Positions 1-27,588 of a DNA stretch of 39,349 nt are shown one piece after another; the stretch's first letter is position 1; each line of letters starts with the position of its first letter. The stretch spans positions 11,174-50,522 of the forward strand of contig CAZAZY010000003.1 in NCBI GenBank assembly GCA_964489785.1, given 5' to 3'. The notes beneath the pieces were generated by a model, which saw only the letters and a program-made list of their open reading frames with translations, was not told where the DNA came from and did not search any database. The position numbers were made by a program, and so were the translations under genes. The stretch is from an uncultured Candidatus Saccharibacteria bacterium (GTDB taxonomy: Bacteria > Patescibacteriota > Minisyncoccia > Phycocordibacterales > UBA1006).

Positions 1-45
1 ACATCCTCTTGCTTTTTTTATAATTTCCAGTATACTGGCTCTCAT

Positions 46-264
46 ATGGTTATACGAATGCGACATACGCGATCACATACACGCAACAGACGAAGTCATC
101 ATGCTTTGGAATCAATAGGTATTTCTGTGGATGCTGAAACAAAAAGCCCACATTTACGACACCATGTTGATGCTAAAACAGGCCGATATAAAGGCCGACA
201 AGTGATTGATGTTGTTGCCAAAGTGGCAAAGAAACAAAGTAAAGCAAATACCAAGACTGCTTAG
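46..264 (+). CDS. rpmF: 50S ribosomal protein L32
   Basis: 72-aa basic ORF. N-terminus MVIRMRHTRSHTRNRRSHHAL fits the L32 hallmark (xTRSxxRxRRSHxAL). An alternative start lies at 58. Confidence 0.85.
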   Translation: MVIRMRHTRSHTRNRRSHHALESIGISVDAETKSPHLRHHVDAKTGRYKGRQVIDVVAKVAKKQSKANTKTA

Positions 265-318
265 TCAGCGTCCTGGTATTTTTGTTATTTAATTTTTTTG
301 ATCTAGTTTATATTATTT

Positions 319-1221
319 ATGTCTACTCGACATCTTGCTCGTTCAATTGTTATGCAGACCTTGTTTGAATGGGACATGGGATCTCATGATGATAATCAGG
401 TGATGAATCTTTTTCATCGTAATGTTGAAGAATTTGCACCTGGGGTTGAAGATATGAAGTTTTTTGAAGATATGTTGGCTGGTATCATCAAAAAGCGTCA
501 GATTCTCGATGATATATTACAAAAGGCTGCTCCTGAATGGCCTTTGGAAAAAATTTCTTCTGTTGATAGAAATGTTCTTCGTGTTGGGTTATACGAATTA
601 GTTTTTGGTGATCGTACCGAAGTTCCTCCAAAAGTTGCTATTAATGAAGCTATCGAATTGGCAAAAACTTTTGGTGGTGAAAACAGTGGACGTTTTGTAA
701 ATGGTGTTTTGGGTGCAGTATACAAAGAACTAGGGGAACCAGACAAAGATCAGCCTTCTAAAAAAGAAAAAGATCAAAACACAAATAAAAAAGCTTTTCC
801 TATCGAGAAAAAAGGAGGTGCAGTAATCTTTTCTCGGGATGATGTTGGTGTTGTTCGTTTTGCGATGGTACATGATGTATTTGGATATTGGACACTGTCA
901 AAAGGCGGTATTGATGATGCAGAATCAGAAGAAGAAGGAACAAAACGAGAAATCAAAGAAGAATTAGGTCTGGATATTTCTATCATCAAAAAATTGGGTG
1001 AAAATGAATACATGGCATCTCATCCCGAAAAAGGAAAAATACGAAAACAAGTTATGTACTTTTTGGCAGAATCTCCTTATCAATCATTACGTATAGAAAA
1101 CGAATCAGGTGGGTTGGATGATGTACGCTGGTTTACCGCTGATGAAATACCCGGATTGAATATCTATGATGATGTTATGAAGATGCTTGCTTTGGCTTTG
1201 GAACACGTTAAAAATCAATAA
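319..1221 (+). CDS. nusB: NusB antitermination factor fused to a C-terminal Nudix hydrolase domain
   Basis: N-terminal ~140 aa are NusB-like (RHLARSIVMQTLFEWD, DRNVLRVGLYEL, PPKVAINEAIELAKTFGGENSGRFVNGVLG). A Lys-rich linker follows, then a domain with a perfect Nudix box, GGIDDAESEEEGTKREIKEELGL (Gx5Ex7REUxEExGU). Confidence 0.85.
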   Translation: MSTRHLARSIVMQTLFEWDMGSHDDNQVMNLFHRNVEEFAPGVEDMKFFEDMLAGIIKKRQILDDILQKAAPEWPLEKISSVDRNVLRVGLYELVFGDRTEVPPKVAINEAIELAKTFGGENSGRFVNGVLGAVYKELGEPDKDQPSKKEKDQNTNKKAFPIEKKGGAVIFSRDDVGVVRFAMVHDVFGYWTLSKGGIDDAESEEEGTKREIKEELGLDISIIKKLGENEYMASHPEKGKIRKQVMYFLAESPYQSLRIENESGGLDDVRWFTADEIPGLNIYDDVMKMLALALEHVKNQ

Positions 1222-1230
1222 TACTTTACT

Positions 1231-1947
1231 ATGTCTACAAACACGATTGATACAACTGCATATTCTTTATTTGCAGAAAAACTTGGTATTACTTTTCAGG
1301 ATATTCGTTGGTTGGTTCAGGCATGTACACACCGTTCTTTTTTGAATGAAAACAGTGGTGTGGTATCTGAACATAATGAACGTTTAGAATTCTTAGGTGA
1401 TGCGGTTTTGGAATTGGTGGTTACTCATTATCTTTTTTATAAATACCCAGAACGACCCGAAGGAGAATTGACTGCTTTTCGTTCAGCATTGGTAAACACG
1501 AATACTATTTCTCAGGCTGCATCAGAATTGGGTATGAATAATTTGCTCTTATTATCAAAAGGAGAGCAACGCGATATGGGAAAAGCTCGTCACTATATTC
1601 TTGCGAATGTATACGAAGCCATGATTGGTGCATTGTATTGTGACCAAGGGTACGCATCTGCAGAAAAATTTATTTCACAAACATTATTGCCAAAGATTGA
1701 TGAAATTGTTGAACATGGTCTATGGCGTGATGCAAAAAGCTATGTACAAGAAAAATCTCAGGAAATAGAAGGTGTTACCCCGTCATATCGTGTTTTAAAA
1801 GAGGCTGGACCTGATCATGATAAAAATTTTACTATTGGAATTTATTTTGGAGAAACTTGTATTGCTGAAGGTTCAGGAAAATCAAAACAAGAAGCTGAAC
1901 AAGAAGCAGCACGAAAAGCTTTGTCTTTGAGAAAATGGGGGATATAA
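1231..1947 (+). CDS. rnc: ribonuclease III
   Basis: RNase III signature NERLEFLGDAVLELVV. C-terminal dsRBD ends in GSGKSKQEAEQEAARKAL. The 238-aa size is typical. Confidence 0.95.
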   Translation: MSTNTIDTTAYSLFAEKLGITFQDIRWLVQACTHRSFLNENSGVVSEHNERLEFLGDAVLELVVTHYLFYKYPERPEGELTAFRSALVNTNTISQAASELGMNNLLLLSKGEQRDMGKARHYILANVYEAMIGALYCDQGYASAEKFISQTLLPKIDEIVEHGLWRDAKSYVQEKSQEIEGVTPSYRVLKEAGPDHDKNFTIGIYFGETCIAEGSGKSKQEAEQEAARKALSLRKWGI

Positions 1948-4362: not shown

Positions 4363-7300
4363 ATGAATGAAACTTTACCCGGTGGTGTTCCTAGATCTAA
4401 AGAAGAGATCTCTGAAGATGCTAAAAATAAAGCATTGGAAAAAATTAAAAAGGGTATTTCAGTTGTAAACATAGAAGAAATTGCAGAAGCAGAAGCAAAA
4501 AAAGCTGCGGATGCATATATGACAGAATCAAAATCTGGAGCTGGGTTTCTTAAAAAACTTTGGAAACATACTTTTTTTGATGAATATTATCGACAACGAG
4601 AAATAAACAAAGTTCGTGAAGAAATAAAAAATACAGGAAATATTTATACACGTAGATCGGAAAAATCAAATCCAGATCATGTTGCTGCTATGAGCGCTAT
4701 TACAGAACGATTTGTTTCTGAATATGAAGGTACGCTAAGTGAAGAAGAAGAGAAAAAAGTTCTCGATGCAAAAGATACAAAAACCATTACTGCAAAAACA
4801 AACATTCAAGATATTGTACAAAAATATGCACAGGGTCTCATATCAAAAGAAGTTTTTATAAACGAAAAAAATCGTGTTTTAAATACATTGGAAAATGATG
4901 ATACGACAAAAGGTCCTAACATGTATGCGGATAATCTTTTGGAAATTGCAGAAAATGCCCGTCTGGCAGTTGAACATGGTGCATCCATAAAAGAATTAGA
5001 TTTGGAAACAAATATTATTTTAGGAAAAGCAAAAAGTAGTCTAAAAACAGAAGCACATTTTAATATGGTTGACCGTGGTGTTGATTGGATGAAAAAATCA
5101 AAAGTCGGACGATTTGTCAGCCCTGCTGTTTTATCTACAGGAGTTGGGATTGCATATTCTCTTAGTGTTGGATTGGGTAAAAAAGCATTAGGATCTCAGG
5201 CTGCTGCGTGGGGTACGTTTGGTGCAGCTGTTGCGGTATCCAGTGCATTTGCTGGTATGAATGAAAGTCAGCGCGTTGCATTAGAACGCGCTCAACATGG
5301 ACTAGAAATGGCCGAGGGTGGAACATTTGAAAAAGATTCAAAACGCCGAGAGCAAATAGACCAGTATCAATACCAAATGGAAAAATCATCTGATTTGGCA
5401 GCTGCATTGCGTGGTCTTGTTTTTGAAAAAGATGCCAAAGGAAATGAAACAATAAAAAATATCAAAGAAGAAGAAATGAGTGCAATCTTTGCACAATTGG
5501 CTGCTATTGAAGCACGAAATTCTTTGAATGCAAAAAAGAAAATCGATCTCATCTCATATACTGATATTGGTAGTGTAGAAAAAGAAAGAACTGATTTAAC
5601 TATTTTGACTGCAAAAGCAAAAGTAGAATTACGAAAGAAAATAGAAGCCGGATTAAAAGGAGGAATTCCAGAAGGGGAAACTTTTGATACCTATCTTGCA
5701 AAACAAGCAAAAACCGTAGAAGATTCTTTGATGGGTGGCGAGCGGGGTATCTCTGCACAAGACAGGGCATTTAGTAAATACAAGGCAAAACGTGTTGCAA
5801 TGAAAGTGGGAGCAACTGCTCTGAGTGGTCTTGTAATTGGCGGTGCTGTACAAGAGGCAGTGGCATTTTTCAAAGATGATACCCAGGGTATTATCGAAGG
5901 TTTCTTAAAAAATGGTGGAGATGAAAATAGGATTCAAACCCCATTGGAACATTTGCGTGGATGGATAATGAATGATCCGTCTACTATGGGTCTCGATAAT
6001 CCTGTAACAACAAATATCGATGGAATCACATTTAATACACCAGAAGGAACCAGTATTATAAAAAATGCAGATGAAACCTTTGACGTTCTCAAGGGTGATA
6101 CTGTTATTTCAGACAATATTAAATTATCTTTTGATGCAGATGGTAATTTAGATGCTGGATCTTTGGCTCGATTAGGGGAAACTGGTGTTGTTGCAAATAC
6201 TACACATACATTGGTAGAAAGTACAAAACAAATAATCCAGACAGCAGCAGAATATGTGGAAACTCATGAAGGAACTCAACATATTACCCGTGATGCTTGG
6301 TATGACAACGATACATCTATTTTTGATAAAAATGAATTACGTCTTGATTGGGGTGGTGGTACAGGAATCGATGCAGATGGTAACTATGTTCTTAATATGG
6401 CGCGTATGGCAGAAGATGGATCTTTTCATGATGGTTTTTTAGTAGATGCACAAGAAAAAATGAAAGATGGGGCATTAAAAATGATTTTCTCGTTATCTCA
6501 GGATACACAACATCATGTATTTGAAGTTCCTATAGATACAAACGGGAATGCAGTAATTGATCCAAATAGTGAAATGGGAAAATTATTTTTTGCTACAGAA
6601 AACGGTCAAGCTGTTTTCAAGGGGCGTTTTGCTGAAGTCGTACAGTCATTTGGTGAGCAAAATGGTGTTGAGCACGTAAAACCATTGGCAACATTGGTTG
6701 GTGAAAATAATGACACTATTGAATCAATAATTCCTGTACACGTTGATCATCCGGTGCATAATCTGGAATTACCATTAGATACAGAGCCTCCTTATTTTAT
6801 TCCCGTTGTTCCACGAACACCATTGGAAACACTAATGAAGAAAAAAGAAAAAGAAGCAGGCAAAAAATCTGGTGGGCCCATTATTGCTCCTATTATTGTC
6901 GAAGATGAAAAGAAAAAGAAGGGAATTGATGAGTCAATAAAAGTAACCCAAGAAGAATACCGGGGTATGCAAGATGATCTGAAAATGATAAACAAAAAAA
7001 TTCAATCATCTGAAGGAATTATTACCGTTACAGAAAATGATTTCAAATCTGCGTATGGAAAGAAACGTTATCGAGAATTATCTTTTATTCAAGAAGGTAT
7101 TCCGGTAACCTTTAATAAAGCCGAAATGCAGGCTATTGGAGATGAACTAGAAGGAATGCTTTCTCGTGCCACTGTAATTATCCCAGAAGAGGCTATAGCG
7201 GTTAGTCCAGAAAAATCACCGGATGCAATGAAAAAAGACATTGAGATGTTAAATAAAAAAATTCAATCATCTGAGGGTATTATTATGATTTCAGAAGGGG

Positions 7301-7770
7301 ATTTTTCTTCTGAGTATGGACGTAACAAATATCAGGAAATGAAAAACATTCCAGATGGTAAGCCGGTGGTATTTAACAAGACCGAATTAGATATTATTGC
7401 AACAGGATTAGAAGCTCTTCTTGTTGGTAATAAAGAAGAAGCGGTAGAGGTGAAGGCAATCAAAGAAAAAGCTGGAGAAACGGCAAAAGTGGGTGGCCCT
7501 ATTGTAGCTCCTATCATCGTACAGGAAAAACCAAAAGATTCTTCGTTAGAGCAGGTATTTACCAGTGCTGATCTATTAAAAACAGGAACAGAATTCGAAG
7601 ATACCAAAAATACCTACAAAATAATCAAAGTTGGGGGTTGGATTTTCAAAGATATGAAAGTTGAAGTTACAAGTAAGGAAACAGGTGAAGTTTCGAAAGA
7701 TAGTTTTAGTGTCAGCGATGCAGAAAATGCATTCAAACAAGGTTCTATTACCATTACAAAAATAATATAA
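4363..7770 (+). CDS. large hypothetical membrane protein (1135 aa) with internal tandem repeats
   Basis: Long uninterrupted ORF. The N-terminus is charged. Hydrophobic segments include VSPAVLSTGVGIAYSLSVGL, AAAWGTFGAAVAVSSAFAG and VGATALSGLVIGGAVQEAVAFF. A large Asp/Gly/Thr-rich region and two 87-aa repeats follow. I recognise no family. Confidence 0.75.
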   Translation: MNETLPGGVPRSKEEISEDAKNKALEKIKKGISVVNIEEIAEAEAKKAADAYMTESKSGAGFLKKLWKHTFFDEYYRQREINKVREEIKNTGNIYTRRSEKSNPDHVAAMSAITERFVSEYEGTLSEEEEKKVLDAKDTKTITAKTNIQDIVQKYAQGLISKEVFINEKNRVLNTLENDDTTKGPNMYADNLLEIAENARLAVEHGASIKELDLETNIILGKAKSSLKTEAHFNMVDRGVDWMKKSKVGRFVSPAVLSTGVGIAYSLSVGLGKKALGSQAAAWGTFGAAVAVSSAFAGMNESQRVALERAQHGLEMAEGGTFEKDSKRREQIDQYQYQMEKSSDLAAALRGLVFEKDAKGNETIKNIKEEEMSAIFAQLAAIEARNSLNAKKKIDLISYTDIGSVEKERTDLTILTAKAKVELRKKIEAGLKGGIPEGETFDTYLAKQAKTVEDSLMGGERGISAQDRAFSKYKAKRVAMKVGATALSGLVIGGAVQEAVAFFKDDTQGIIEGFLKNGGDENRIQTPLEHLRGWIMNDPSTMGLDNPVTTNIDGITFNTPEGTSIIKNADETFDVLKGDTVISDNIKLSFDADGNLDAGSLARLGETGVVANTTHTLVESTKQIIQTAAEYVETHEGTQHITRDAWYDNDTSIFDKNELRLDWGGGTGIDADGNYVLNMARMAEDGSFHDGFLVDAQEKMKDGALKMIFSLSQDTQHHVFEVPIDTNGNAVIDPNSEMGKLFFATENGQAVFKGRFAEVVQSFGEQNGVEHVKPLATLVGENNDTIESIIPVHVDHPVHNLELPLDTEPPYFIPVVPRTPLETLMKKKEKEAGKKSGGPIIAPIIVEDEKKKKGIDESIKVTQEEYRGMQDDLKMINKKIQSSEGIITVTENDFKSAYGKKRYRELSFIQEGIPVTFNKAEMQAIGDELEGMLSRATVIIPEEAIAVSPEKSPDAMKKDIEMLNKKIQSSEGIIMISEGDFSSEYGRNKYQEMKNIPDGKPVVFNKTELDIIATGLEALLVGNKEEAVEVKAIKEKAGETAKVGGPIVAPIIVQEKPKDSSLEQVFTSADLLKTGTEFEDTKNTYKIIKVGGWIFKDMKVEVTSKETGEVSKDSFSVSDAENAFKQGSITITKII
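6967..7488 (+). repeat. in-frame tandem duplication, 2 x 261 nt (87 aa), inside the 1135-aa ORF
   Basis: MQDDLKMINKKIQSSEGIITVTENDFKSAYGKKRYRE... (from 6967) versus MKKDIEMLNKKIQSSEGIIMISEGDFSSEYGRNKYQE... (from 7228). The pair is bracketed by the motif GGPI(I/V)APIIV at 6871-6900 and 7492-7521. Confidence 0.85.
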
Positions 7771-10746: not shown

Positions 10747-11082
10747 ATGAATGATCAAGCACAAGAATTTCTTTCGTACGTTATCAAGGGATTAGTTGAC
10801 CATCCAAATGATGTAAAAATCACACGGACAGTTGACGACATGGGAGTACTTTTGACATTGGATCTTAACCCAGAAGATATGGGTAAAGTTATCGGTCGAA
10901 AAGGAAATACTGCAAAGGCAGTACGAACTCTTCTTCGTGTTGTAGGGATGAAACATAATGCACGTGTTAACCTGAAAATCACAGAACCAGAAGGGGGAAT
11001 GAAATCAGTTGCACGACCTGCGGCTGCAGATTCTAGCGAAGTAGATGCTGCAATCGAAGACTTGAAAAACGAACTTGAATAA
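10747..11082 (+). CDS. khpA: KH-domain RNA-binding protein (KhpA/YlqC-like)
   Basis: LVDHPNDVKI...DMGKVIGRKGNTAKAVRTLLRVVG contains the KH GxxG loop (GRKG). It sits next to rpsP as in many bacteria and has a ~30-aa acidic C-terminal extension. Confidence 0.8.
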   Translation: MNDQAQEFLSYVIKGLVDHPNDVKITRTVDDMGVLLTLDLNPEDMGKVIGRKGNTAKAVRTLLRVVGMKHNARVNLKITEPEGGMKSVARPAAADSSEVDAAIEDLKNELE

Positions 11083-11512: not shown

Positions 11513-11542
11513 TCCCTGATTTATAAAAACTCTCTGGTAAAA

Positions 11543-11573
11543 ATAAAAACCGCATCATGCGGTTTTTATTTTT
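11543..11573. terminator. bidirectional rho-independent terminator
   Basis: ATAAAAA-CCGCA-TCA-TGCGG-TTTTTAT. It serves the + strand ORF and the minus-strand tRNA unit. Confidence 0.8.
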
Positions 11574-11602
11574 GAACCCTGCTTGTTCTTTTGAACATTT
11601 TG

Positions 11603-11800
11603 TGCAGCTGCCAGGACTCGAACCTGGGACCTCGTCATTATTAGGTGAAAAGTGATTAGTGAGCTTTTCACCGCTCTATTTGAAAACTTTGTGCGACTGC
11701 CAGGACTCGAACCTGGGACCTCGTCATTATCAGTGACGCGCTCTAACCACCTGAGCTACAGTCGCACGAAATTTTCAAAGACCACCTGAGCTACAGCTGC
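11603..11800 (-). other. disrupted or split tRNA-like gene that encloses tRNA-Ile
   Basis: The 5' fragment GCAGCTGTAGCTCAGGTGGT (11800-11781) and the 3' fragment ATAATGACGAGGTCCCAGGTTCGAGTCCTGGCAGCTGCA (11641-11603) have mutually complementary acceptor halves. The D-arm 3' half TAGAGCG lies at 11678-11672. The 102-nt insert is at 11679-11780 and a 30-nt replacement hairpin region at 11642-11671. Confidence 0.6.
11692..11765 (-). tRNA. tRNA-Ile (anticodon GAU), 74 nt, no encoded CCA
   Basis: Manual cloverleaf: GCGACTG TA GCTC AGGTGGTTA GAGC G CGTCA CTGATAA TGACG AGGTC CCAGG TTCGAGT CCTGG CAGTCGC A. All four stems are Watson-Crick. Confidence 0.9.
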
Positions 11801-11809
11801 ATGCACATT

Positions 11810-11838
11810 ACTATAGCAAAAAAGCCACAATATCGCAA
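11810..11838 (-). promoter_or_regulatory. promoter for the tRNA unit (TTGCGA-17-TATAGT on minus strand)
   Basis: Reverse complement of 11833-11838 is TTGCGA; reverse complement of 11810-11815 is TATAGT. The -10 ends 9 nt before the outer tRNA 5' fragment. Confidence 0.55.
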
Positions 11839-22629: not shown

Positions 22630-22704
22630 GGTCCCATCGTCTAACGGTTAGGACGAATCCTTCTCAAGGATTAAATCGGAGTTCGATTCTCCGTGGGATC
22701 ACCA
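22630..22704 (+). tRNA. tRNA-Glu (anticodon CUC) with encoded CCA
   Basis: GGTCCCA TC GTCT AACGGTTA GGAC G AATCC TTCTCAA GGATT AAAT CGGAG TTCGATT CTCCG TGGGATC A CCA. The stems pair, with one G-U in the acceptor. Confidence 0.88.
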
Positions 22705-22714
22705 TTTAGAGTTA

Positions 22715-22724
22715 GCACGAGAAG
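22715..22724 (+). repeat. 10-bp direct repeat GCACGAGAAG, left copy
   Basis: An identical 10-mer recurs at 23529-23538. Together the copies bracket the 263-aa ORF. Confidence 0.7.
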
Positions 22725-22734
22725 ATTATAATTT

Positions 22735-23526
22735 ATGGATAAATTAAAGAAAAAAGAAGAAAAAAAGATAGCTAAGAAACTAAATAAAAATCTTTCTTTA
22801 ATTTATTCTAAATGTGAAATTATTTTAAAAAAACATACGGAAGGTGAAAGTATTAATGAAAAAGATTATATTTGGTTTGTATTTTCTGCTGATATTTATT
22901 ATAGAATAAAAGATATATCTTTCTTGAATAAAAAACTTAAAGAAACAAAAAATAACTTTGACAGTTCTTTGTATGTGCTAAGTAGGTCAGTATTGGAAAC
23001 TTTTATTTACTTCAAATATCTCCTTTGTGAAGAAAATAAAATAATGTACCGACTGCGTGCTTTCGTCTGTTACTCAACTAGAAATAATGATATAAGTATT
23101 CTTAATTCCCTAAAGACGCTAGGAGGGAAAGGTAAATTTATTTTTAGCAGCGATCCTACTAGTATTCTTTCGGCTGAGATGCTTAATAAAAAAATAGTTG
23201 AATTAAATGATTCAATAACAGAATATAAGAATTTTTACAAAGAAGAATCTGCTTTTACTGATGAAATTGAGGTTTTCAAAAAAATTGAAAGAGTGGCGCA
23301 GAAATATGATGAAATTAAATGCATAAATTCAATCACAGATGGCTCAGAAAATACAAGCATGGAATGGATGTACAATTATGTTTATAGATTTCAGTGTATG
23401 TCTGCTCATCAAAGCCTTAGAGATAAAGAAAAGGTCTTTAGTTTATTTGATAAGAATAAAGAATCAGACAATATACATATCCTCGGACTATTATCTGACA
23501 TAACAGAACAAATTTTAATTTTATAG
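22735..23526 (+). CDS. hypothetical protein in AT-rich insert, possibly a HEPN-like/Abi-type fold
   Basis: 263 aa and very AT-rich. Motifs LSRSVLETFIYFKYL and YRFQCMSAHQS (R-x6-H, at the outer limit of the HEPN Rx4-6H pattern). No confident family match. Confidence 0.55.
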   Translation: MDKLKKKEEKKIAKKLNKNLSLIYSKCEIILKKHTEGESINEKDYIWFVFSADIYYRIKDISFLNKKLKETKNNFDSSLYVLSRSVLETFIYFKYLLCEENKIMYRLRAFVCYSTRNNDISILNSLKTLGGKGKFIFSSDPTSILSAEMLNKKIVELNDSITEYKNFYKEESAFTDEIEVFKKIERVAQKYDEIKCINSITDGSENTSMEWMYNYVYRFQCMSAHQSLRDKEKVFSLFDKNKESDNIHILGLLSDITEQILIL

Positions 23527-23528
23527 AC

Positions 23529-23538
23529 GCACGAGAAG
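23529..23538 (+). repeat. 10-bp direct repeat GCACGAGAAG, right copy
   Basis: Begins 3 nt after the stop codon of the 263-aa ORF. Confidence 0.7.
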
Positions 23539-23590
23539 GGTTAAGTTATTTTTAATAAAAGTATTTAAAATAACCTTACTGGTCAATGAG

Positions 23591-25141
23591 TCAATTAATT
23601 CTATCTGTTGAACTCTCACACTTAGAACACCATAGCCCATTTTTAATATCAGAAATTTTAGCCATCCAAGAGTGACCGTTCTTACATTGCCATTTCATTT
23701 TTACAGATGAATTGATATATTTTTTTGATAAGCAAATACCTCTCATTTTTTCTGCTAGAGCATTTGCTTGCTTAATATTTAATATTCTACCAATATTCCG
23801 ATCTTTGTAGCTACATTTAGGACACCAAGTTCCTCTATTTTTAATATGTCCAGGTTTTGCTTCCCATACATGACCTTCTTTACATTTCCATTTTAGTTTA
23901 GTATTTGAACCTAGATATTCTTTAGAGAGTAATTCTCCTTCATTGGTTAATGCTATATTTTGTAAATAAATTAATTGATTGTCAGGAACATAATAAGTCT
24001 GCTTAATTTCAAAATTTGTATTAATTTTTTTTGAATACGTTTTAGGTAAATTCTCTATAATATATTGTTTTAAATCTTCTGTTTGAATATAGTAAGGAAT
24101 ACCCATTAAAAAAATTCCTTTTGATTTGCAAACCTTCTTTTTAAGTTTATCATCATTGATTCGTTGCTTTAGCGAGTCATTGTCTCTGTGAAAAAAGCCA
24201 TTCTTTTTATAGTGTTGAACACCTTGATATTCAAAAGCTAATGAAAGTTCTTTAGAGTAACCATCTAACTCCATTTTATTTCCCCTAGAATTGACCAACC
24301 ATATGGGCTTAATTTTAATAAATTTTGTGTTAAATAAGCTTTCAAATAGTATTCTTGTGTATCTTTCGTTTAAACCAGCAGAACATTCTGGGCACCAAGA
24401 ATTTCTTCCTTTGATACTTTTTCCAGTTGTTTCCCATATATGCCCAAAGTTACATACGAATTTGAGCTTAGATGCATTATTTTTATATTCCTTAGACAAA
24501 CATTCTCCACCTCGCTCCTTGGCAATTTTGTGGAATTCTTTTATGTTTAGAATTTCTTTTCCAGCACACTTTTTACACCAAGCGTTATTATTTACAATAT
24601 TTATTGGTGAAACTTCCCAAACATGACCTTTTTCACATTTCCATTTTAGCTTAATATTGGAGTTAATATATTCCTTAGACAAACATTCTCCACCTCGCTC
24701 GTTGGCAATTTCTTTCATTTTTTCAATTGTATGTTTTTCTTTACCTGAGCAAATTAGACACCAGCTCTTACTATGCTTAATATGCATAGGTGTTGCTTCC
24801 CAAACATGACCTTTTTCACATTTCCATTTTAGCTTAGTATTGGAGTTAATATATTCCTTAGACAAACATTCTCCACCTCGCTCCTTGGCAATTTTGTGGA
24901 ATTGTTCAATAGATAATGGTTGGCTACCTGCACAAACTGGACACCAAGTTCCTGCTCTTTTGCTGGAACCTTTTATTGAATGAGGAATTGCTTCCCAAAC
25001 ATGACCTTTTTCACATTTCCATTTTAGCTTAGTATTGGAGTTAATATATTCCTTAGACAAACATTCTCCACCTCGCTCCTTGGCAATTTCTTTCATTTTT
25101 TCAATTGTTCCAATTTGTCTTCCCATTTCTAAATTATACAC
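23591..25141 (-). CDS. six-fold zinc-ribbon repeat protein with a central PD-(D/E)xK-like (Vsr/DUF559-like) nuclease core
   Basis: Four N-terminal and two C-terminal copies of A-x-ERGGECLSKEY-x5-KLKWKC-x2-GH-x-WE-x(14-19)-WCP-x-C (CHCC ligands). The core (aa ~258-350) has NERYTRILFE, MELDGY and LAFEYQGVQH. Confidence 0.75.
   Translation of the reverse strand: MYNLEMGRQIGTIEKMKEIAKERGGECLSKEYINSNTKLKWKCEKGHVWEAIPHSIKGSSKRAGTWCPVCAGSQPLSIEQFHKIAKERGGECLSKEYINSNTKLKWKCEKGHVWEATPMHIKHSKSWCLICSGKEKHTIEKMKEIANERGGECLSKEYINSNIKLKWKCEKGHVWEVSPINIVNNNAWCKKCAGKEILNIKEFHKIAKERGGECLSKEYKNNASKLKFVCNFGHIWETTGKSIKGRNSWCPECSAGLNERYTRILFESLFNTKFIKIKPIWLVNSRGNKMELDGYSKELSLAFEYQGVQHYKKNGFFHRDNDSLKQRINDDKLKKKVCKSKGIFLMGIPYYIQTEDLKQYIIENLPKTYSKKINTNFEIKQTYYVPDNQLIYLQNIALTNEGELLSKEYLGSNTKLKWKCKEGHVWEAKPGHIKNRGTWCPKCSYKDRNIGRILNIKQANALAEKMRGICLSKKYINSSVKMKWQCKNGHSWMAKISDIKNGLWCSKCESSTDRIN
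24377..25108 (-). repeat. four tandem near-identical coding repeats (periods 183, 183 and 195 nt)
   Basis: CCTTAGACAAACATTCTCCACCTCGCTC recurs at 24490, 24673, 24856 and 25051 on the + strand. Confidence 0.9.
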
Positions 25142-25314
25142 TTTCTCAATTGATTATTATATAGTTCTATTGTGGTTAACAAGGACTGTCCTTGCTAAAA
25201 CTTTAAAGGTATTTAAACACTCCTTGCATTAAAAAGTATCTTTTGATAAGATGTTTTTTATGTTACTTGGATTACATTATTACTCAAATAAAATCGGCCC
25301 AAATAGGATCTCGT

Positions 25315-25340
25315 AAACCGCCAAAAGCGGTTTTTTTAAT
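25315..25340 (+). terminator. hairpin plus T-run with no listed upstream + strand gene
   Basis: AAACCGC-CAAAA-GCGGTTT-TTTT just upstream of the helicase gene. Confidence 0.5.
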
Positions 25341-25348
25341 ACAATATT

Positions 25349-27172
25349 ATGGAAAAATATAAACAAGAACTTATAGAACAGGTAAAATCGCATATTGGTT
25401 TTATAAAACAAAAAATTCAACAAAGATTGAATGATGTTACAGTATTGGCAAATACCAGCTTATCTCAGATCAGTAAAATGGCTCCAGCGGATCAGGTGGT
25501 ATATATGGATCTGCGCGCAAATGCACAAAAACGGGTAGTTGAACTGGATCATCTGGATGGATCACCGTATTTTATAAAATGTAAAATCATAACGGAACAG
25601 GGACAAGAAGAAGAATATTTCTTTGCTAAACATGAATTTTCTGAACAATCAATTTATTCTTGGGTTGCTCCGGTGGCGGCGATACGTTTTGAATCTCCCG
25701 GTCAGACTTCGTACAAACTTCCCAGTGGTAAAACAAAAACAATAACTATTAAACAAAAAGAACAGTATATGATTGTCGATGGTACATTACTGTTCTTTTC
25801 TTTGGAATCTGAAAACAAACCCCGCGAATTGATCTACCAAGAATATTTTACAAAACAAAAATCAGAATTTGCTCTTCCTGAAATTGTGGCTCAGATGGAA
25901 AAGGCACAAGATCAGGTTATTCGCGCACATCACCGGGGTCCGATGATTATTTCAGGACCCGCAGGTTCCGGAAAAACAACGTTGGCTTTGCACCGCGTGG
26001 CGTATCTGACCCAGGCACCTGATACTGCTGAATTGTATCCTCCACGTTCTATTGTTATTTTTGTACAAGATACTGGAACCAAAGATTATTTCTCGACCTT
26101 GTTACCAGGATTGGGAATACGAGATGTAACCATAACCACATTTTCAGAATGGGCATTTTTGGTATTGAATATGGCGGGATATACCTATGTCGAAAGATAC
26201 GGAGATAACGACGAAGAAAAAGATCTGTATGAATATCAAAAATTAAAAGCACTTCGAGAACATACCTCTTCTGTTTGGAGTAGAAATTATTTTACCGTGT
26301 TGTTTTCTCATTACGAAGATTATTTTTTAGCACAGAACAGTAAGCTATTTGCACGACAGAAAAAAGAGAAAAAACTGGATAGATTTGATTTGACCATTCT
26401 TTTGAAATTATATTTTGAAAAGTATAAAAAATTTGAAACAAAACGAGAATATCAAGTATGGGTAAAAGATAAACTGACCAACAGAACTGAAAATACATTG
26501 ATATCATATTCTTTGGTGATTGTAGATGAATTCCAAAACTATCTTCCCGAACAGTTACGTATTTTCAAAAATTGTTTACAAGAAAAAACACAATCTTCTG
26601 TATATGTGGGGGATATAGCTCAGCAGGTGAAACTGGGAACTATAAAAAATTGGAAAGATATTGACGAAGATGTTTCTTTGGAACGAAATATCCGACTGAA
26701 CAAGGTCTACAGAAATACAAAAAATATATTGGATTACATTCAAACATTGGGATATAGCATTGAAATACCTGATGGATTAAAACAGGGTCCGGTGGTTACT
26801 GAAAAAATTATAGATACCATTCCCGAAGAAATAGCATATATAAAAGAATATCTACCAACATATGAAAAGGGAAGTATTGGTATTCTGGCAAAGAATGATG
26901 CGTATCTGGGCGATTTTAGAAAAGAATTTGCAGATACAAAAAATATTCATGTACTGACTATGGTTGAATCACAAGGGGTAGAATTTGATATTGTATTTAT
27001 TGTGGGAATACACAAAGAAAGTTTCGAGGTCGTGTATCACGATGGCGCCTTGGCAGAATATATCGAAGAAAGAAAAAGAATACAAAAAGATATTTTGTAT
27101 GTGGCATTAACTCGTGCTATCACGGAACTTCATATTTTGGGTAGAGAAAAATTAAAACATTTTGTGAATTAA
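25349..27172 (+). CDS. SF1 UvrD-like helicase, HelD/helicase IV-like
   Basis: Walker A ISGPAGSGKTTLALHRVAYL, motif II VIVDEFQNY, VYVGDIAQQ, ESQGVEFDIVFIV and motif VI LYVALTRAITELHILG. N-terminal YSWVAPVAAIRF resembles the HelD WRAP motif. Confidence 0.75.
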   Translation: MEKYKQELIEQVKSHIGFIKQKIQQRLNDVTVLANTSLSQISKMAPADQVVYMDLRANAQKRVVELDHLDGSPYFIKCKIITEQGQEEEYFFAKHEFSEQSIYSWVAPVAAIRFESPGQTSYKLPSGKTKTITIKQKEQYMIVDGTLLFFSLESENKPRELIYQEYFTKQKSEFALPEIVAQMEKAQDQVIRAHHRGPMIISGPAGSGKTTLALHRVAYLTQAPDTAELYPPRSIVIFVQDTGTKDYFSTLLPGLGIRDVTITTFSEWAFLVLNMAGYTYVERYGDNDEEKDLYEYQKLKALREHTSSVWSRNYFTVLFSHYEDYFLAQNSKLFARQKKEKKLDRFDLTILLKLYFEKYKKFETKREYQVWVKDKLTNRTENTLISYSLVIVDEFQNYLPEQLRIFKNCLQEKTQSSVYVGDIAQQVKLGTIKNWKDIDEDVSLERNIRLNKVYRNTKNILDYIQTLGYSIEIPDGLKQGPVVTEKIIDTIPEEIAYIKEYLPTYEKGSIGILAKNDAYLGDFRKEFADTKNIHVLTMVESQGVEFDIVFIVGIHKESFEVVYHDGALAEYIEERKRIQKDILYVALTRAITELHILGREKLKHFVN

Positions 27173-27240
27173 TAGAGGGTGGGTTAGTAAGACCCTTGCT
27201 AAAAAGACGCCAGTATCTTTTTGTGCTAGTATGTAAATAT

Positions 27241-27588
27241 ATGGAGAATATAAAACCACAACAATCAGAAAAAGTATTATTAGATAGTCTGGCTATGGAT
27301 TTTCAAAATCTGGCGGTAAGTTTTCAAGAAAAAGGCGCTGGAGAAGATATATATACTTTGGCACGAACATTAATGGTTACTTTGCAAAGATTGGGACAAG
27401 CTAATCCTGATGAATCTAAAAAAATGCGAGAATATATCAAAGAAGAATCATTTACTATAAAAGAATTAATCAACCGAGCAATGCATTTTTCTACCGAAGG
27501 TGAATTAGAAAACATTAAAAAAGAAATGAATGAGCTGAATGTTCATATGCAACACAAGGGAATGCTGGATCATACTTCCGGAAATTAG
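27241..27588 (+). CDS. hypothetical protein (115 aa, helical)
   Basis: ORF downstream of the helicase. Start set at ATG 27241 rather than the TTG at 27196. Confidence 0.5.
   Translation: MENIKPQQSEKVLLDSLAMDFQNLAVSFQEKGAGEDIYTLARTLMVTLQRLGQANPDESKKMREYIKEESFTIKELINRAMHFSTEGELENIKKEMNELNVHMQHKGMLDHTSGN

Follow-up and report, generated by a model that had tools for sequence, protein, structure and literature searches.

An intact tRNA-Ile gene enclosed by the two pieces of a second tRNA-Ile copy in a Candidatus Saccharibacteria bacterium and its relatives

We analyzed a stretch of 39,349 nucleotides (nt) from an uncultured Candidatus Saccharibacteria bacterium (contig CAZAZY010000003.1, positions 11,174 to 50,522 of the forward strand). 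We call this whole stretch the window, and its first letter is position 1. The window has a G+C content of 36%, and its genes include those for RNase R, S16, a KH protein and the F-type ATP synthase. These features, along with a close relative that bears the name Candidatus Pacebacteria/Paceibacterota, place the window in Patescibacteria. On its minus strand, a canonical tRNA-Ile(GAU) gene (11692-11765) is enclosed by a second tRNA-Ile copy, which is cut exactly between tRNA positions 20 and 21. The acceptor stem of the outer copy, GCAGCUG/CAGCUGC, is here called type A, and that of the inner copy, GCGACUG/CAGUCGC, is called type B; the two differ at pairs 3-70 and 4-69. We consider it probable, at roughly 60%, that an older resident type-A tRNA-Ile gene was broken at 20/21 by the insertion of a 102-nt type-B cassette, that the outer pieces are its two halves, and that the inner gene is the working one. 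This interpretation rests on eleven related loci, to which we refer by locus or contig labels (L-numbers).

The features of the unit are listed in Table 1. In the 102-nt insert (11679-11780), the 74-nt tRNA is preceded by a leader of 15 nt and followed by a trailer of 13 nt. The ends of the insert are terminal inverted repeats, TTTGAAAA...TTTTCAAA, and the flanks on the two sides of the tRNA are complementary throughout. The junctions read GGTGGT|CTTTGAAAA and TTTTCAAA|TAGAGCG, and the break in the outer tRNA is exact, in that no host base is missing, repeated or duplicated. The outer 5' fragment contains the GCAGCTG acceptor strand, the 5' strand of the D stem and the D loop up to U20. The outer 3' fragment contains the anticodon loop (with GAU changed to AAU), the 3' strand of the anticodon stem, the variable loop, the T arm, the 3' strand of the acceptor stem and A73. 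Between the resumption of the outer copy at TAGAGCG and this fragment, a hairpin that we call hp stands in place of the 5' strand of the outer anticodon stem. A preliminary description of this DNA had already drawn the nested gene, the outer pieces, the insert and the resumption at TAGAGCG, and all of their coordinates and sequences were confirmed, as were those of the 9-bp hairpin. Two of its statements require adjustment. It had the outer anticodon 5' strand replaced by the hairpin, which is correct except that part of the strand survives, as TTCAC-C-TAATAA. It had also recognized the outer 3' piece as a duplicate of the inner tRNA; the direct repeat (D1; 55 nt, 91% identity) does cover the 3' part of the tRNA, but it reaches 13 nt beyond the tRNA end into the trailer (CAAAGTTTTCAAA versus CAAAATGTTCAAA), further than had been claimed. 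The two copies of D1 start 89 nt apart, with no open reading frame (ORF) between them.

A promoter scan bore out the promoter that had been proposed just upstream of the outer 5' piece. This promoter is common to all syntenic relatives, and the first tRNA-derived piece always abuts it. The whole unit is presumably transcribed from this one promoter. The proposed single terminator was not listed on the minus strand by the terminator scan, and is recognized instead as a perfect inverted repeat (I2). It is also kept in L083, L085, L096 and L109, and because it is a perfect palindrome, it could act in both directions.

The inner and outer copies differ clearly as tRNAs. The inner gene matches the Rfam tRNA family RF00005 with 72.8 bits, compared to a gathering threshold of 29, and ARAGORN identifies it as tRNA-Ile(GAU). 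The outer 3' piece gives only a partial match to RF00005, in the T arm, with 12.9 bits. When the insert is removed in silico from the outer copy, ARAGORN reports a tRNA-shaped molecule labeled 'tRNA-???', with no valid anticodon. The outer anticodon is AAU, in an 8-nt loop, and no canonical anticodon stem could be restored in the outer copy even with both inserts removed. The outer halves would be expected to yield no translating tRNA. A permissive-threshold Rfam search of the window locus and L093 found only tRNA and chance-level terminator-like matches, and therefore no known RNA family covers the hairpins. As a control, we considered the tRNA-Glu of the window. No tRNA-derived fragments lie around it, which indicates that the nesting in the window is specific to tRNA-Ile. 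The same tRNA-Glu(CTC) gene (22630-22704) encodes its 3' CCA, and the tRNA-Ile gene at 11692-11765 does not.

To obtain syntenic relatives, we fetched contigs that contain homologues of the small ORF adjoining the locus, and the resulting module map was confirmed by a script. Six further versions of the window's intergenic region were found in this way (Table 1). The site of the outer 5' fragment is taken by an intact type-A tRNA in L087 and L096, and an intact type-A gene is also the innermost tRNA of L109. The intact gene is of type B in the window, L083, L085 and L093. The body sequence of the inner tRNA recurs in all related loci. L109 is nested three deep with the roles of the two types reversed: an A fragment encloses a broken B copy, which encloses an intact A gene. 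Here, the cassette that breaks the B copy, at 39/40, holds an intact type-A tRNA and brings a leader and trailer of its own, which pair with each other. The two outer halves are not retained together among these loci, since L085 and L109 have an orphan 5' piece and L093 has an orphan 3' piece. Types A and B are thus real tRNA-Ile alleles, either of which can work inside the broken other, and the halves of a broken copy are evidently kept or lost independently. Two insertions, one of B into A (20/21) and one of A into B (39/40), together with later recombination of the identical 65-nt cores, could account for all of the syntenic variants.

The preliminary description had proposed that three stacked compensatory changes in the acceptor stems mean that the outer halves belong together. 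There are only two such pairs (3-70 and 4-69), and they reflect two alleles that are both found intact in relatives. It had also recommended comparing syntenic loci to see whether the outer halves are conserved; in this comparison, they are not conserved together. Its first two readings, a disrupted older copy or paralogue and a recombination scar, are supported by the intact type-A genes of L087 and L096 and by the single and decaying halves in relatives. Its third reading, a processed split or ligated tRNA-within-tRNA, found no support, given that the halves are not co-conserved and that neither an anticodon stem nor a bulge-helix-bulge was found. Some other sources of relatives were of no use. 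The closest species representatives by AtpB are 33-52% identical and have no tRNA near atp, so that they are useless for synteny, and loci P0009, P0010 and P0014 were dropped as non-syntenic. An exact look-up of the atpZ-like protein returned no record.

Outside the syntenic clade, we scanned metagenome contigs with the tRNA body, which led to nine loci. L103 and L108 are syntenic with each other, as both have an SLT-domain protein, a release factor and the cassette (protein identities are 76% for the release factor and 69% for the SLT-domain protein), and they are not syntenic with the window. Their layout is nevertheless a nest at 20/21, in which the 5' fragment stops in the D loop and is followed by a long leader, an intact tRNA, a long trailer, TAGAGCG, an hp-like hairpin and a 3' half; the helix sequences are unrelated to those of the window. 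L100, L104 and L105 lie downstream of tRNA-Ala and nest at the anticodon, with a pairing leader and trailer, and their outer tRNA-like gene has an acceptor stem of its own (GGGCGAU/AUCGCCC). In L107, two tandem units (Table 1) each combine an 18-nt trailer with tRNA positions 40-76, whose T loop carries a 52-nt insert of two hairpins. L107 shares this 39/40 junction position with the window's relatives and with the second module of L103. Across loci, the insertion sites are the D loop (20/21), the anticodon (34/35) and the anticodon stem (39/40). By these comparisons, the nesting of tRNA-Ile in tRNA-Ile is a recurrent phenomenon in several lineages of small Patescibacteria.

Two further observations concern these contigs. 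A 16-nt GC-rich palindrome, TCCGCCAGCTGGCGGA, is dispersed in the AT-rich contigs of L107 (434-449, 1923-1938 and 4002-4017) and L100 (581-596 and 807-822), and in L100 one copy lies in the D loop of the outer pseudo-tRNA. The pattern points to a small family of palindromic repeats that may land in tRNA relics. The other observation concerns the 245-nt spacer of L100 (550-790), between tRNA-Ala and the outer tRNA-Ile-like gene. It contains several strong hairpins and a stretch, TTGCAAGG, that resembles the anticodon loop of tRNA-Ala; tRNA-Ala may carry relics too.

We then compared the outer pieces for signs of decay and of constraint. In L103, only 5 of the 7 outer acceptor pairs and 3 of the 5 outer T-stem pairs can form. 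In L108, 4 of 5 T-stem pairs remain and the variable region has been replaced, and both L104 and L105 have lost most of one outer half. The outer copy of L083 has CAACG in place of TGACG. However, every pair of the outer acceptor stem can form in the window, L083 and L108, and all five differences between the outer parts of the window and L083 are at unpaired positions. The outer fragment and the inner tRNA of L108 share the AGCT variant of the D loop, and those of L103 share AGGT. Fragments thus track the D-loop variant of their own gene, which suggests that gene conversion refreshes them. Taken together, the presence of both acceptor types as intact genes at the orthologous promoter, the failure of the halves to be retained together and the decay of the outer pieces lead us to view the outer gene as a relic and not a split tRNA. 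The evidence also argues against a conserved tRNA-like shell.

The structural feature that stands out is the pairing of leader and trailer. The preliminary description had proposed to fold the locus, and the minimum-free-energy fold of 11603-11800 is the exact nested cloverleaf that it had drawn, at -75.4 kcal/mol (z = -4.8; none of 200 shuffled sequences folded as well). The corresponding fold of the L109 transcript is a perfect nest at -124.5 kcal/mol (z = -8.8). The predicted stalk in the window consists of 12 leader-trailer pairs in addition to the 7-bp acceptor stem, which bears out the flank pairing noted previously, and the leader-trailer helix has an energy of -26.1 kcal/mol, well below the -14.9 +/- 2.0 kcal/mol obtained with a shuffled leader. 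L103 and L108 have stalks of 25 and 31 pairs, respectively, plus 7, and these are far more stable than with shuffled leaders. A leader that is complementary to the trailer occurs only around nested tRNAs and never at promoter-proximal simple tRNAs, and the leader-trailer helix is the best-conserved feature of the nested loci outside the tRNA itself. Its pairing is kept through double changes, between L103 and L108 at pairs -3/+2 and -7/+6, and between the B-stalk and the A-stalk at -8/+7 and -9/+8. The stalks contain 7 G-U pairs versus at least 4 A-C mismatches.

The stalk most plausibly works at the RNA level, where it may clamp the ends of the inner tRNA. The 12-bp helix, stacked on the 7-bp acceptor stem, would hold together the true ends of the inner tRNA and would prevent it from mispairing with the identical outer fragments. 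The idea that the stalk could be an RNase III-like substrate, raised in the preliminary description, is plausible, and the gene rnc is indeed encoded in the window (1231-1947). A helix of 20-40 bp would then be a likely entry site for RNase III, ahead of RNase P and 3' trimming.

The hairpins pose a separate question. Homologues of hp are found in L083, L093, L109, L103 and L108. Among these six sequences, including the window, the pairing of hp is kept while 4 pairs have changed on both sides. Its covariation score is 0.344, compared to 0.132 +/- 0.042 in shuffles and to at most 0.077 when partners are slid. Downstream of the tRNA, the broken type-B copy contains two more hairpin inserts in L083, L096, L093 and L109, namely a 22-nt hairpin and a 31-nt hairpin that we call X (Table 1). 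X is also present on an A-type fragment of L093, which suggests that X spreads between fragments. The three hairpins fit a role in insulating the strands of the broken copy, but they could just as well have arisen through template switching in the DNA.

In the scenario that we favor, insertional replacement, a cassette comprising a tRNA-Ile gene and its pairing leader and trailer would enter the resident tRNA-Ile gene and take over its function. The identical tRNA cores would then recombine, such that pieces are deleted, swapped and multiplied, and relatives would differ in the fragments they keep. The shells would be relics that recombine, convert and slowly decay. Because the junctions are exactly complementary, without a lost or duplicated base, we favor an insertion over two independent deletions; indeed, two independent deletions in a tandem A-B-A array were ruled out, as the breakpoints are exactly complementary both here (20|21) and in L109 (39|40). 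Candidate routes at the DNA level would be a trimmed integrative element that carries a tRNA, a tiny non-autonomous element with hairpin ends, or self-duplication. By the usual marks of a miniature inverted-repeat transposable element, the window insert has terminal inverted repeats, while no target-site duplication and, in the window and the fetched loci, no dispersed copies were found.

It is important to emphasize that several observations weigh against insertional replacement. We found no recombinase, transposase or element body among the 20 window ORFs tested or among the neighbors of L103 and L108. The junctions show neither a target-site duplication nor a shared core, which matches no known chemistry of insertion; in particular, the chemistry of tyrosine or serine integrases was rejected because the two junctions lack a repeated core or crossover dinucleotide. 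A search of the window and of 802 kb of fetched DNA located the modules at tRNA-Ile loci and nowhere else, with no sign of dispersed copies. The loci are also too few to fix polarity, i.e., which state is ancestral. Other observations concern the relics themselves. In the syntenic clade, all four derived substitutions in fragment stems yield G-U pairs, and together with the covariation of hp this hints at RNA-level constraint on parts of the relics. Moreover, when L093 is compared with close relatives of the window, the non-tRNA modules (the trailers, hp, X and the 22-nt hairpin) share approximately 90% identity, and between these same lineages atpB is only about 50% identical and its 4-fold degenerate sites are saturated. 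Neutral relics should have diverged more, so the identity of the modules calls for selection, horizontal spread or gene conversion. A bolder version would be that Patescibacteria harbor a compact, self-targeting tRNA-Ile replacement cassette that inserts repeatedly into the resident gene at any of the three sites, assumes its role, leaves nested shells behind and spreads horizontally, with hairpins (the stalk, hp, the 22-nt hairpin and X) selected for mobility or for insulating the working tRNA from its relics while it folds and is processed by RNase III. We consider this version doubtful, but it deserves to be kept in mind.

Some of the same observations would suit a functional nested precursor, in which the outer shell (acceptor, D stem, hp and T arm) is a selected scaffold that helps in processing, stabilizing or regulating the inner tRNA, or forms a two-piece tRNA-like RNA of its own. 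Such a precursor would explain why the nested folds are so clean and have such low z-scores, why hp has kept its pairing through four double changes in six sequences, why the hairpins are approximately 90% conserved despite saturated neutral sites and why the five outer differences between the window and L083 all avoid paired positions; the tRNA-shaped molecule seen by ARAGORN after insert removal points in the same direction. However, close relatives dispense with the shell in part or altogether, as the 3' half is missing from L085, the 5' half from L093 and both from L087. In L103 and L108, the shells have changes that break the acceptor and T stems, and the 7 G-U pairs and at least 4 A-C mismatches in the stalks have no clear strand asymmetry. 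In addition, template switching at the DNA level can create palindromes and keep them complementary without selection on RNA. On balance, we find a functional precursor fairly unlikely. The related proposal of a true split or intron-containing tRNA, whose outer halves are joined, or act in trans, once the insert and hairpin are removed, is in our judgment scarcely credible. It would account for the precise insertion at 20/21 and for the perfect pairing of the outer acceptor halves in the window, L083 and L108. Yet the minimum-free-energy fold has no bulge-helix-bulge at the junctions (we sought a 3-nt bulge, 4-bp helix and 3-nt bulge): the 5' junction falls in an 8-nt single strand and the 3' junction at the blunt base of the stalk. 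Removing both inserts leaves no anticodon stem and a mutated anticodon, and the halves are not co-conserved in L085, L093 and L109. No splicing endonuclease or ligase was seen among the ORFs scanned in the 39-kb window, and the archaeal splicing endonuclease is not known from bacteria.

Alternatively, an integrative element (a phage or island) with a tRNA-Ile of its own might have disrupted the host tRNA-Ile gene and then been stripped to a scar that keeps the essential tRNA alone, with repeated integrations into the current working copy producing the nested layers. This would explain the target specificity, the lineage-specific sites, the patchy distribution and the foreign acceptor allele, as well as the additional downstream 3' fragments in L083, L093, L096, L103 and L107. 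There are also precedents, in the tRNA-dependent lysogeny of mycobacteriophages (PMC10865867) and in an archaeal 5' tRNA fragment beside a recombinase-bearing insert (PMC3293823). Nevertheless, no element body or integrase is kept at any fetched locus, the repeated junction core expected of tyrosine or serine integrases is missing, and the flanks are complementary over their full length up to the tRNA, with no remnant of an element. The inner copy of L108 has the same acceptor and D-loop variants as the outer one, a pattern that resembles self-duplication. Scans of IMG/VR with the tRNA body, and for a 5' fragment closely followed by a full D arm, returned zero matches, and when collections of phages and plasmids were searched by BLAST with the entire unit, they gave generic tRNA matches only, none of which covers the nest. 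We therefore regard a stripped scar as unlikely. Finally, the nest could be an assembly artefact that joins type-A and type-B strain variants. The locus does contain exact repeats of 34-55 nt, and Logan contigs break there; for example, the Logan contig L081 (run SRR14492199) covers the outer 3' piece and terminator and stops exactly where the 34-nt repeat begins. L081 is separately listed and agrees with the window, but SRR14492199 may be the window's own source. However, the junction sequences are unique and each is shorter than one read, and nested junctions recur across samples and assemblers: in an NCBI metagenome-assembled genome (L085) and in data from ENA (L083), JGI (L093) and Logan (L084, L086, L109 and L110). 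Independent assemblies of the relatives also agree (L084 with L083, L086 with L085 and L110 with L109). Given the short junctions and their recurrence in other samples, an artefact is very unlikely.

Table 1. Features of the nested tRNA-Ile unit in the window and layout of related loci
Locus	Feature	Position	Strand	Basis
Window	Promoter TTGCGA-17 nt-TATAGT with TG extension	11810-11838	-	promoter scan
Window	Outer 5' fragment GCAGCTGTAGCTCAGGTGGT, type-A tRNA-Ile positions 1-20	11781-11800	-	repeat D2
Window	Cassette leader CTTTGAAAATTTCGT, 5' strand of leader-trailer helix	11766-11780	-	repeat I1 and fold
Window	Intact tRNA-Ile(GAU), type-B acceptor GCGACUG/CAGUCGC, no encoded CCA	11692-11765	-	ARAGORN, Rfam
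Window	Cassette trailer CAAAGTTTTCAAA, 3' strand of leader-trailer helix	11679-11691	-	fold
Window	Resumption of outer copy, TAGAGCG, type-A tRNA positions 21-27	11672-11678	-	sequence
Window	Hairpin hp, 9 bp, GGTGAAAAG-CTCACTAATCA-CTTTTCACC	11644-11672	-	sequence; single copy in window
Window	Outer 3' fragment, anticodon loop to A73, type-A acceptor CAGCTGC	11603-11643	-	repeat D1
Window	Outer-copy trailer CAAAATGTTCAAAAGAACA, homologous to the A-type trailer CAAAGAACTCAAAGAACA of relatives	11584-11602	-	sequence comparison
Window	Terminator of unit, AAAAATAAAAACCGCAT/ATGCGGTTTTTATTTTT, perfect 17-nt inverted repeat and T run	11539-11573	-	repeat I2
L083, L096, L093, L109	22-nt hairpin	between tRNA positions 44 and 45 of broken type-B copy		
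L083, L096, L093, L109	31-nt hairpin X	between tRNA positions 64 and 65 of broken type-B copy		
L087	Simple intact type-A tRNA at promoter, nothing else			
L096	Intact A, A-type trailer, type-B 40-76 interrupted by 22-nt hairpin and 31-nt X, B trailer			
L085 (and independent contig L086)	A 5' fragment, leader, intact B, trailer; without outer 3' half			
L083 (and independent contig L084)	Window layout with five substitutions in outer parts; B(40-76) module added			
L093	Intact B at promoter, B(40-76), TAGAGCG-hp-A(32-76), another partial unit; without 5' fragment			
L109, part 1	A 5' fragment, leader, B 1-27, hp-like hairpin, B 32-39			
L109, part 2 (3' part confirmed by L110)	Second leader, intact type-A tRNA, its trailer, B 40-76, B trailer			
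L107	Intact tRNA-Ile, then two identical tandem units	~184-430		
L101, L106	Simple tRNA loci			

We also noted some features of the window away from the unit. Directly after tRNA-Glu(CTC), there is a stretch of low G+C content (22630-27588; 0.30-0.35), whose ORFs match DUF5677, a DUF4379/CapR zinc-finger protein and a UvrD-like SF1 helicase; this looks like an island or defence cluster inserted beside a tRNA gene. The KH-domain gene (10747-11082) is far more conserved than its neighbors, even at 4-fold sites: identity at these sites is 48/55 for KH and 16/50 for atpB in the comparison with L087, and 36/49 and 20/51, respectively, with L093. Possible explanations are a recombination tract or an overlapping constraint. 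A 1135-aa ORF (4363-7770) has no Pfam match, and a separate ORF (319-1221) encodes an apparent fusion of NusB and NUDIX.

What these loci mean depends on which reading holds. Should the shells be no more than relics, the loci are a curiosity of modest weight in the natural history of genomes. A mobile cassette or functional hairpins would make them a new class of element, and a self-targeting cassette, if true, would be a new mobile or self-renewing bacterial RNA gene and a living model for the origin of disrupted tRNAs. The stages kept among relatives, which comprise simple genes, single and double nests, orphan halves and tandem arrays, make the disruption of tRNA genes tractable by comparative genomics and metatranscriptomics. 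The predicted leader-trailer clamp suggests that tRNA maturation in these minimal-genome bacteria might depend on RNase III. As a practical matter, nested loci can mislead tRNA annotation and break short-read assemblies.

In searching the literature on nested or disrupted tRNA genes of bacteria, we encountered no account of one bacterial tRNA lying within another, but several known systems share some features of this arrangement. In rRNA precursors, leader and trailer form a helix of approximately 20 to 40 bp that encloses a stable RNA and is processed by RNase III. The nested loci resemble these precursors in having a leader-trailer helix around a stable RNA, and rnc is encoded; they differ in that the predicted stalk is present only where a tRNA is nested. 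RNase III stalks are known from 16S and 23S rRNA and are not known from a single bacterial tRNA. The tyrT-rtT region of E. coli has distal repeats in a tRNA operon that contain a tRNA 3' end and arose by unequal recombination, but it has no 5' fragments, no nesting and no tRNA halves interrupted by hairpins.

Disrupted tRNA genes are known from archaea and a few algae. Their origin is debated, and one old idea is that they were broken by mobile DNA. In these organisms, tRNAs with non-canonical introns and split or permuted tRNAs rely on a bulge-helix-bulge, an endonuclease and a ligase to give a functional tRNA (PMC4033280, PMC3978253). The nested loci are similar in that the break is precise and falls in the D loop or anticodon loop, and in that sequences adjacent to the break form a helix. 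They are unlike them in that the motif is absent, the outer copy is unable to yield a canonical tRNA and the 'intron' itself holds a functional tRNA.

Integrative elements provide a closer parallel in structure. These elements leave fragments of tRNA genes by duplication of the attachment (att) site (PMC9897764), and a 5' fragment of tRNA-Thr is reported for Caldiarchaeum (PMC3293823). As with such fragments, we see partial copies beside an intact gene, a patchy distribution among close relatives and several downstream 3' fragments. However, att repeats are one-sided and bound an element on the kilobase scale, whereas here complementary 5' and 3' fragments enclose an intact gene at a distance of 13-40 nt. 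In tRNA-dependent lysogeny (e.g., Fionnbharth), a prophage breaks the host tRNA gene and supplies its own copy (PMC10865867). The order of parts is the same as in our loci, namely the host 5' part, an inserted tRNA of the same isotype and the host 3' part, and in both cases an essential host tRNA is not rebuilt. The phage system differs in that a whole prophage with its integrase is inserted and a ~10-bp common core marks both junctions, whereas the present insert has 102 nt, no enzyme, no core, flanks that pair and nesting of up to three levels. With these differences in mind, tRNA-dependent lysogeny is the nearest documented mechanism and the tRNA fragments left by integrative elements are the nearest structural analogues, with the disrupted tRNA genes of archaea as another.

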